Source of the DNA: Escherichia coli
GTDB taxonomy: Bacteria > Pseudomonadota > Gammaproteobacteria > Enterobacterales > Enterobacteriaceae
Assembly (NCBI RefSeq): GCF_003334335.1
Contig: NZ_QOWQ01000042.1
DNA length: 38,099 bases
Strand: one strand, 5' to 3'
Below, one piece after another: positions 14,313 to 15,108 of the stretch; position 1 is the first letter of the stretch, and every line of letters begins with the position of its first letter. Position numbers and translations under genes: made by a program. The notes beneath the pieces are model-generated. The model was not told the DNA's origin. It made no database searches and saw nothing but the letters and a program-made list of their open reading frames with translations.

Positions 14313-15074
14313 ATGACACAGTTTCAACTTGCATTAATCGCTAGAGAAGTTGATGGAGAAGTCATCCATCTTCGCACCAAAGACGGATACATCAATGCCA
14401 CCGCGATGTGCAAGTCTGCGGGGAAGCTACTTGCTGACTATACACGACTAAAAACAACACAAGATTTTTTTGATGAATTATCACGCGATATGGGGATTCC
14501 CATATCGGAGTTAATTCAATCATTTAAAGGCGGAAGAGCAGAGAATCAAGGGACTTGGGTTCATCCAGACATCGCAATTAATTTAGCTCAGTGGCTATCT
14601 CCAAAATTTGCAGTGCAAGTATCGAGATGGGTGCGTGAGTGGATGTCAGGTGAAAGAGCGCCTGCCGAACTCCCTATCCACCTTAAGCGGTATATGACAA
14701 ACCGAGGCAGAGTTCCTCATACGCACTTTTCTATGCTTAATGAACTGACGTTTAACTTGGTTGCGCCACTTGAACAGGCCGGATATACGCTGCCAGAAAA
14801 AATGGTCCCTGATATTTCAGAGGGTAGGGTTTTCTCGCAATGGCTCCGTGACAACCGGGGGGTTGAGCCGAAGACATTCCCAACATATAACCATGAGTAC
14901 CCAGATGGCCGGACATTCCCGGTACGTCTATACCCAAACGAATATCTTGCAGATTTCAAACAACACTTCAACGAAGTGTGGCTGCCTCAGTACGCTCCTA
15001 AATATTTTGCTGAACGAGACCAAAGGGCATTGACGTTGATTGAGAAAATCATGCTACCTGACCTTGATTCCTAA
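14313..15074 (+). CDS. KilA-N domain protein in the rexAB position
   Basis: N-terminal INATAMCKSAGKLLADY...GTWVHPDIAINLAQWLSPKFAVQVSRWV is a KilA-N/APSES-type signature. ~150-aa C-terminus unknown. AGGATG RBS. Co-oriented with cI and followed by a terminator. Confidence 0.6.
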   Translation: MTQFQLALIAREVDGEVIHLRTKDGYINATAMCKSAGKLLADYTRLKTTQDFFDELSRDMGIPISELIQSFKGGRAENQGTWVHPDIAINLAQWLSPKFAVQVSRWVREWMSGERAPAELPIHLKRYMTNRGRVPHTHFSMLNELTFNLVAPLEQAGYTLPEKMVPDISEGRVFSQWLRDNRGVEPKTFPTYNHEYPDGRTFPVRLYPNEYLADFKQHFNEVWLPQYAPKYFAERDQRALTLIEKIMLPDLDS

Positions 15075-15082
15075 ATGTTATT

Positions 15083-15108
15083 CCCGGCCACAGAGCCGGG
15101 TTTTCTTT
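15083..15108 (+). terminator. intrinsic terminator ending the cI / KilA-N transcript
   Basis: cccggc-cacaga-gccggg followed by TTTTCTTT, 9 nt after the stop. Confidence 0.55.

Follow-up and report, generated by a model that had tools for sequence, protein, structure and literature searches.

The gene that lies directly downstream of the repressor gene cI in a lambda-type immunity region of Escherichia coli (GCF_003334335.1, contig NZ_QOWQ01000042.1) probably encodes a divergent prophage abortive-infection defence protein of the BstA family, an assignment that is made from sequence comparisons. The stretch of DNA analysed, hereafter called the window, is 38,099 nt long, and all positions are given in its coordinates. 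The gene is an open reading frame (ORF) of 253 amino acids (14313..15074, + strand) that takes the place of the lambda genes rexA and rexB, and its product combines a KilA-N DNA-binding domain with a BstA_C domain. Inside the KilA-N coding region lies a palindrome whose arms vary together among related genes. This element was unexpected, is statistically solid in the alignments, and has about an even chance of being a duplex-DNA site of the gene's own protein.

Domain composition and relationship to BstA

A preliminary description of the window, made from the letters alone, had delimited the same ORF with the same length, and had proposed that it encodes a KilA-N protein with an unrecognised C-terminal domain that could act in superinfection exclusion or defence. 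A hidden Markov model search confirmed the N-terminal domain (Pfam PF04383, residues 13-112, E=2e-26), and the fold also supports the KilA-N identity. The C-terminal half, in contrast to that description, belongs to a known domain. PADLOC recognises residues 120-237 with its BstA model (E=2.5e-20), and close homologues carry PF26567 ('BstA_C' or 'BstA-like C-terminal domain'), which was assigned through the precomputed annotation of homologues that are 86-99% identical. In a BLASTP comparison with BstA-BTP1, the BstA protein of phage BTP1, residues 133-251 aligned with 29% identity over 133 amino acids (E=5e-15), and when profiles of 30 relatives and of 27 BTP1-type BstA proteins were compared with hhalign, the C-domains aligned with a probability of 97.8% (E=7e-13). 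At full length (residues 1-252), the protein matches the PHROGs family phrog_6287, 'BstA abortive infection system, replication inhibitor', with E=1.8e-82; the only PHROG match of BstA-BTP1 is likewise phrog_6287 (E=2e-150). No NCBIfam model matches the protein. A collection of 5.8 billion proteins contained 2748 relatives at E<=1e-5. Among the relatives listed, PF04383 is found together with PF26567, whereas BTP1-type BstA proteins have PF26567 alone.

BstA of BTP1 and the homologous proteins of K. pneumoniae and E. coli NCTC10963 are abortive-infection defence proteins (Owen et al. 2021, PMC8585504). BstA colocalises with phage DNA and stops phage DNA replication, and bstA lies 3' of the prophage cI gene and is strongly expressed in lysogens (PMC8585504). 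The BTP1 prophage escapes its own BstA by means of aba, a 63-bp element made up of 29 bp upstream of bstA and the first 34 bp of the gene; aba acts as DNA, its terminal CCCGCC repeats are essential, and every BstA has a cognate aba (PMC8585504). In the discussion of that work, the bstA site is equated with the mosaic hotspot between cI and N (Degnan et al. 2007), which is the place of rexAB in lambda, and both the sensing of phage replication by BstA and the mechanism of silencing by aba are named as open questions (PMC8585504). The earlier idea of a defence gene in the rexAB position is thus right in substance, but as a concept it had already been published (PMC8585504). Since the protein of the window is homologous to the BstA family, a defence role in lysogens is supported. 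Table S1 of Owen et al. (PMC8585504) includes short matches to the C-terminal part only, and the present subfamily is most likely equivalent to this group.

The resemblance to BTP1 extends to the arrangement of the locus. In BTP1, bstA also stands directly 3' of cI on the same strand and is followed by a near-identical terminator and then by pL and N. Both proteins consist of a KilA-N or KilA-N-like domain and a BstA_C domain, and share PHROG 6287 and the same Pfam C-domain. They differ in length (307 amino acids in BTP1), only their C-domains align, and Pfam does not detect the N-domain of BstA-BTP1 as KilA-N. A second comparison is provided by the BstA^Ec type, represented by E. coli NCTC10963, whose homologue defends against phages (PMC8585504), and by E. 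coli O178:H19 2012C-4431. In the latter strain, a gene whose product is 42% identical to BstA-BTP1 occupies the same slot, after cI WP_001274755.1 and before the N gene; an identical cI WP_001274755.1 precedes the allele of the window in E. coli O111:NM 14614. The BstA^Ec-type protein belongs to the BTP1-type subfamily, has no palindrome in its gene, and is related to the protein of the window in the C-domain only (22% identity, E=3e-5). The slot between cI and pL of lambda-type phages therefore hosts, behind one and the same repressor, two BstA-type proteins that differ greatly from each other.

The position of the gene in the immunity region

The leftward strand of lambda corresponds to the + strand of the window. 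From cro to the stop codon of cI the DNA is 96.6% identical to that of lambda (BLASTN), in agreement with the lambda-like immunity seen in the preliminary description. The homology breaks immediately behind the cI stop codon, at 14282, and restarts at 15083, the equivalent of the first base behind the rexB stop codon of lambda, so that about 800 bp occupy exactly the rexA-rexB position, as had been supposed. Escherichia phage PhiR5_2 (PV340546) matches the whole window with 100% identity, and its annotation lists the gene as 'hypothetical protein'. The features of the region are given in Table 1.

Table 1. Features of the immunity region and of the BstA-family gene (window coordinates)
Feature	Position	Strand	Basis or remarks
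Cro	13267-13467	-	
OR/pRM region	13468-13567		presumed promoter of the transcript entering the BstA-family gene
cI repressor, lambda immunity type, 237 aa	13568..14281	+	ORF call, DNA homology; annotated cI in PhiR5_2
Left end of the cassette: last ~27 nt of lambda-type cI and 31-nt spacer with AGGA	14252..14312	+	
BstA-family gene, ATG start, 253 aa, KilA-N then BstA_C	14313..15074	+	
KilA-N / APSES-type DNA-binding domain, residues 13-112	14349..14648	+	Pfam PF04383 E=2e-26; fold
22-bp palindrome CGATATGGG-gatt-CCCATATCG, codons 58-65 (R-D-M-G-I-P-I-S)	14486..14507	.	candidate cis-acting DNA site
BstA_C domain, residues ~120-237	14670..15023	+	PADLOC, BLASTP, hhalign, PF26567 on homologues
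Intrinsic terminator, lambda tImm region	stem 15083-15100 and T-run to ~15108	+	6-bp all-GC stem
pL promoter and OL operators, end of immunity region	15295..15323	+	TTGACA-17-GATACT; recognisable lambda OL sequences; lambda homology
N gene	15572..15955		

The start codon of the BstA-family gene is preceded at 7 nt by an AGGA Shine-Dalgarno motif. The gap between the cI stop codon and the ORF is only 31 bp, and a scan of this gap found no terminator-like site; transcription is therefore expected to read through from cI. The intrinsic terminator behind the gene (DNA fold of -7.3 kcal/mol) ends with its T-run at the position where the preliminary description had placed the end of the element. That description regarded it as the gene's own terminator, which is not the case: the tImm sequence (CCCGGC..GCCGGG and a T-run) is common to lambda, where it follows rexB, to HK97, to BTP1 bstA (93% identity over 29 bp, homology interval 15083-15111) and to the BstA^Ec-type locus. 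By this comparison, the terminator is the common right-hand junction of the slot.

Taking these elements together with the properties of the family, the gene would be transcribed in the lysogen by read-through from cI, driven by pRM (and by pRE during establishment), as far as tImm. The protein would then be constitutively present, as judged from the BstA family and lambda biology, and, as for the BstA proteins with tested activity, might stay idle until a heteroimmune phage starts to replicate; it would act by abortive infection through a block of the incoming phage's replication (PMC8585504). A resident prophage would have to escape its own protein upon induction, which BTP1 does by aba. By analogy with these systems, we infer that pRM drives expression, that the protein has a defence phenotype and that self-immunity is needed.

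The protein shares with RexA and RexB of lambda, which are abortive-infection cargo expressed in lysogens, the genomic position and the flanking cI and tImm sequences. In sequence and domains it is unlike them, and no Rex match was obtained from PADLOC (E<=1), which gave only BstA and a weak PDC-S22, or from PHROGs. RexAB is a two-gene system of a sensor and a membrane channel, while the gene described here is a single ORF for a cytoplasmic protein of the DNA-binding type.

A covarying palindrome in the KilA-N coding region

When codons were compared between pairs of sequences, synonymous differences were unusually scarce around codons 51-85 of the gene. When synonymous conservation was expressed as the proportion of identical codons among identical residues in 24 homologues (57-100% protein identity), the gene had a sole peak at codons 53-72 (0.54-0.62 versus 0.31-0.45 elsewhere), which holds between distant sequences too. 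The palindrome listed in Table 1 lies at this peak. No other stem in the gene of the window is as strong, and in most relatives the element is a perfect palindrome of 22-28 bp. Its distribution was surveyed in genomes of 80 different species, whose proteins have 49-99% identity. At the same codons, arms of at least 8 bp were present in 45 of these 80 and arms of at least 6 bp in 56, compared with 5-9 bp for the best stem elsewhere in these genes. The species include members of the Proteobacteria (alpha, beta and gamma), the Bacteroidota, the Firmicutes, Brachyspira, the Opitutaceae, the Armatimonadetes and the Myxococcales. An allele located in the nin region of other E. coli prophages also bears a perfect palindrome, CGATATGGGAATTCCCATATCG. 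The 38-kb window contains no further copy, and none was found at 45 loci in the 3 kb on either side.

The arms vary between alleles and yet stay complementary, as in CCGATATGGGAATTCCCATATCGG, CCGAAACGGGAATTCCCGTTTCGG, CCGATATCGGTATACCGATATCGG, CCGATGCCGGAATTCCGGCATCGG, GGTCTACGGGAATTCCCGTAGACC and CGTGGTCGGAATTCCGACCACG; arm variants include ATATGGG, AAACGGG, ATATCGG and TCTATGGG. The encoded peptide shifts along with the arms (D-M-G-I-P-I-S, E-T-G-I-P-V-S, D-A-G-I-P-A-S, S-T-G-I-P-V-D), and the symmetry is retained in some sequences that lack the G-I-P motif, for example ...ATGCAgattTGCAC... In an alignment of 99 distinct sequences, 73.3% of the cells were paired, versus 61.4±0.7 in shuffles, and cells with a double change numbered 147, versus 63±6. 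The covariation score was 0.289; shuffled alignments gave 0.135, none of 500 reached the observed value, and scores with slid partners did not exceed 0.11. Within the G-I-P clade, which is defined by amino acids (n=42), 85.7% of the cells were paired (70.5±1.2 in shuffles), covariation was 0.393 (0.137 in shuffles), and RNAalifold predicted a 9-bp stem with compensatory changes at 7 of its 9 pairs. Recoding with synonymous codons, which left each peptide unchanged, reduced the arm pairs from 7.7 to 5.9 on average.

The preservation of the palindrome is not uniform, and several points weigh against the role proposed for it. In 24 of the 80 species' genomes, about a quarter, the arms have at most 4 bp and there is no palindrome. 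On the full mixed alignment of the 99 sequences RNAalifold predicts nothing, and its stem is seen only when the palindrome-less clade is left out by the amino-acid criterion. The link to self-immunity that is considered below is drawn by analogy. Most of the homologues without palindrome form a clade with the peptide Q-T-G-L-P-E..L-I-H, found mostly in islands that are not of phage origin. A simple rule by which the palindrome would be phage-borne and its absence island-borne has exceptions in both directions: one locus at a prophage end (L013), one beside an insertion sequence (IS; L188) and three in IMG/VR contigs (L078, L089, L090).

Outside the subfamily, BTP1-type and Ec-type bstA genes have no comparable or long intragenic palindrome. 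Two KilA-N proteins without BstA_C, ORF105L of Planktothrix phage PaV-LD and a protein of a Bacteroides LoVEphage, have a palindrome at the homologous position, and four other KilA-N proteins examined have none that is comparable. The KilA-N/APSES proteins P1 KilA, yeast Mbp1 and Bqt4 differ from the protein of the window in having other C-terminal partners and in not being defence proteins, and the literature searched reports no palindrome inside their genes. Rfam gave no match to the palindrome, and a full-text literature search for KilA-N and palindrome returned nothing relevant. The conserved palindrome inside the KilA-N coding region appears to be a new, undescribed feature.

DNA site or RNA hairpin, and possible functions

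The symmetry could in principle be read in DNA or in the messenger. As RNA, the palindrome is predicted to form a hairpin of -21.6 kcal/mol over 62 nt (z=-4.8), and as single-stranded DNA, on either strand, hairpins of -9.4 and -8.9 kcal/mol. The types of mismatch in the arms did not help to decide, since G:T and A:C mismatches (13 and 17) carry no strand-specific RNA signature. The centre of the dyad is more telling. Among 26 genes with a GC content at third codon positions (GC3) >=0.6, codon 61 is GGA in 21, against 17% of the other glycine codons of those genes, and codon 62 is ATT in 22, a choice made in 22% of the remaining isoleucine codons. In the exceptions the two codons have changed jointly, GGT occurring with ATA, so that GGAATTCC becomes GGTATACC. 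These two central pairs are unable to pair in a hairpin and are nevertheless kept complementary, which argues for selection on the dyad symmetry of duplex DNA. Such symmetry favours a site bound by a protein dimer, as far as the alignment can tell. The KilA-N domain is the simplest candidate for the binder, because across phyla the palindrome is passed on together with the gene and stays with this lineage of KilA-N; binding of the palindrome by a KilA-N dimer of the gene's own protein is, on these sequence grounds, about as probable as not.

An mRNA hairpin acting on stability, processing or translational pausing, rather than a DNA site, is the alternative with the best standing, at perhaps one chance in four. 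It would account for the stable predicted fold and for the 9-bp stem of the G-I-P clade, and the central 4 nt are not palindromic in some alleles, including that of the window. It does not account for the two central pairs that are kept complementary against codon bias, nor does it fit with the lack of an excess of G:U over A:C mismatches or the lack of an Rfam match.

If the palindrome is a DNA site of the BstA-like protein, it may, hypothetically, serve as a self-immunity element or as an autoregulatory operator. That it is a functional equivalent of aba is less probable than binding as such, and is suggested by analogy. In its specific form, which we consider rather unlikely, the palindrome would mark 'self' DNA and, on the replicating prophage, turn off the BstA-like protein or titrate it away, in the manner of aba and BstA-BTP1. 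Cognate specificity might then, with no better odds, come from the allele-specific arms. Under such self-recognition, a DNA-binding domain and its target would co-evolve within the same 30 nucleotides, and the arrangement would have persisted in Proteobacteria, Bacteroidota, Firmicutes and Spirochaetes as well as in other phyla. A covarying single-copy palindrome in this position bears on how aba acts, on what bacterial KilA-N domains bind, and on how a prophage tells itself from an invader. The lambdoid phage HK022 reportedly offers a parallel from a different protein family: its DNA-binding protein Roi is said, in work by Clerget and Boccard from 1996, to bind a site inside its own gene.

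Another hypothetical location for self-immunity is the conserved leader of 57-60 bp (14252-14312), because the position of aba in BTP1 is analogous. As a conserved element of the whole family this leader was rejected: it is conserved in the alleles linked to cI and unrelated in the nin-region allele, and so belongs to the cassette. The small repeats around the gene start are unremarkable, and codons 1-12 show no synonymous conservation. An aba of the BTP1 type was also rejected for this locus, the 63-bp aba sequence matching only Salmonella phages.

A cassette mobile among immunity regions

The preliminary description had counted homologues confined to non-immunity contexts as evidence against its proposal, and this is not what was found. 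Of the IMG/VR loci, 80 were kept, about 40 of which encode a protein that is >=98% identical. In most of these about 40, a cI-like ORF lies directly upstream on the same strand, and the repressors, directly behind which the >=99% identical form of the protein is also encoded, are of at least eight kinds. They include lambda cI itself, repressors 41% identical to lambda cI, repressors 24-70% identical to BTP1 cI or 32-34% identical to the cI of Proteus phage V3, and repressors 76-100% identical to that of E. coli H6. In a comparison of 13 loci that have differing repressors, the part homologous to the window starts at 14251-14257 and ends at 15104-15117, except for one locus where it runs further to the right. 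These boundaries show the gene to be, as far as comparative sequence can establish it, a cassette of about 860 bp (about 14252-15117) that moves between immunity regions and has its right end at the shared terminator. Behind repressors that are not of lambda type, the final ~27 nt of lambda cI still follow the stop codon of the foreign repressor; this constant left boundary suggests a recombination linker or a functional leader. No compositional anomaly of the cassette was found.

Other cargo of lambda immunity regions comprises rexAB (lambda), hicAB (mEp234, HK106), gp48/gp49 (HK97), an NYN-domain gene (ev099) and other ORFs. In Proteus phage vB_BPM-V3, a homologue with 80% identity stands right after cI. 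Relatives were present in 139 of 5426 complete E. coli genomes, at >=95% DNA identity in 22 and at ~78% in 117. Beyond the Enterobacterales, the gene occurs on P4-like and primase-bearing elements, at the ends of prophages, within islands that carry an integrase, beside an IS, and in islands of non-phage type close to genes for restriction-modification or toxin-antitoxin systems.

Weighing of the defence assignment

Several findings weigh against the assignment to BstA-type defence. The alignment to BstA proteins with tested activity is limited to the C-terminal ~120 residues with 22-29% identity, and the N-domains cannot be aligned with those of BTP1-type BstA even profile to profile; the full-length family match is to PHROG 6287 only, and full-length homology to a tested BstA was not found. 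The PADLOC BstA model was covered to just 42%, so that automated defence finders would probably not call the protein BstA, and the large subfamily with KilA-N and BstA_C, with its 2748 relatives, has probably been missed by them. As to expression, a consensus promoter scan did not detect pRM, which is expected for a weak, CI-activated promoter, and the co-transcription of cI and the BstA-family gene is deduced from the anatomy of the locus. The aba element of BTP1, 63 bp at the start of bstA with direct CCCGCC repeats, has no counterpart here, CCCGCC being absent between 11393 and 18761; an aba is, however, allele-specific by definition, and the covarying palindrome is a candidate for such an element. 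The ~78% identical allele (86% at the protein level) of the 117 E. coli genomes lies in the nin region and not behind cI, and outside the Enterobacterales a cI-like gene, as searched for with an enterobacterial cI profile, is rarely adjacent. Finally, E. coli H6 and 10 of the 80 IMG/VR loci (L045, L068-L074, L077) have a nonsense allele.

The nin-region allele, which is paralogous, is found in E. coli prophages and in phages vB_EcoS-6xxR. It encodes 257 amino acids on the strand opposite to the replication and Q genes, near a hok/gef gene, and probably uses its own promoter because no ORF on the same strand lies upstream. In the nonsense allele, GAA is changed to TAA at codon 114 (~14652; ...MSG*RAP...), exactly at the boundary between KilA-N and BstA_C, and in RefSeq the gene appears as two ORFs, one for KilA-N and the other 'hypothetical'. 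The allele could represent decay of the gene, or a form with KilA-N alone that is tolerated.

Among the other explanations of the gene, an antirepressor-like transcription regulator of the KilA-N type, acting on its own phage (for example through autoregulation at the palindrome) and not in defence, deserves most attention, and we regard it as unlikely. KilA-N proteins are commonly annotated as regulators or antirepressors, and the protein of the window does match phrog_129 (E=8e-24). The palindrome resembles an operator and is also present in the two KilA-N proteins without BstA_C mentioned above, and one allele, that of the nin region, stands among early lytic genes. The best and sole full-length family match, however, is BstA. 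The C-terminal half is BstA_C and not ANT/KilAC or another regulator domain, and it is in this that the protein differs from the Ant antirepressors, which join Bro-N/KilA-N to ANT/KilAC; Pfam finds KilA-N as the only one of these domains here. An antirepressor co-transcribed with cI would moreover oppose its own operon, and the presence of homologues in defence islands of non-phage type, beside restriction-modification and toxin-antitoxin genes, fits poorly with the regulation of a phage.

A lysogenic-conversion gene that serves host physiology or virulence, and not the exclusion of phages, is improbable. BTP1 bstA, under the name st313-td, was first tied to Salmonella virulence phenotypes, a link that was later superseded by the defence function (PMC8585504). 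The slot between cI and pL does accept varied cargo such as hicAB, but nothing in the protein hints at secretion or host targeting, and the fold is that of a DNA-binding protein.

That the gene is an inert or decaying passenger of a mosaic slot, as the nonsense allele, the truncated ORFs at two more IMG/VR loci and the lack of a compositional signature might suggest, is very improbable, given an ORF that is intact in the window and at most loci, 2748 homologues with many invariant residues, and a protein kept at >=99% identity while its DNA differs by 4-6%, which indicates purifying selection.

Other observations in the window

The region of N and nutL (15085-15700, 15572-15955) is HK97-like with 96% identity, while the immunity is that of lambda; from these identities, the phage is a mosaic with a junction at pL. 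Directly after N, and overlapping its stop codon, the + strand contains an ORF of 238 amino acids (15956-16672), annotated as hypothetical in PhiR5_2, with CxxC...CxxC motifs and a C-terminal, coiled-coil-like tail rich in lysine and glutamate. On the - strand, the gene of the O replication protein (within 11496-12817) encodes a (QE)n run and repeated 'QQPQQPEAD' peptides, and a small ORF at 12599-12817 has two copies of 'HQPQQPEADWVNP'. All of these may represent repeats of the origin region that are related to iterons.

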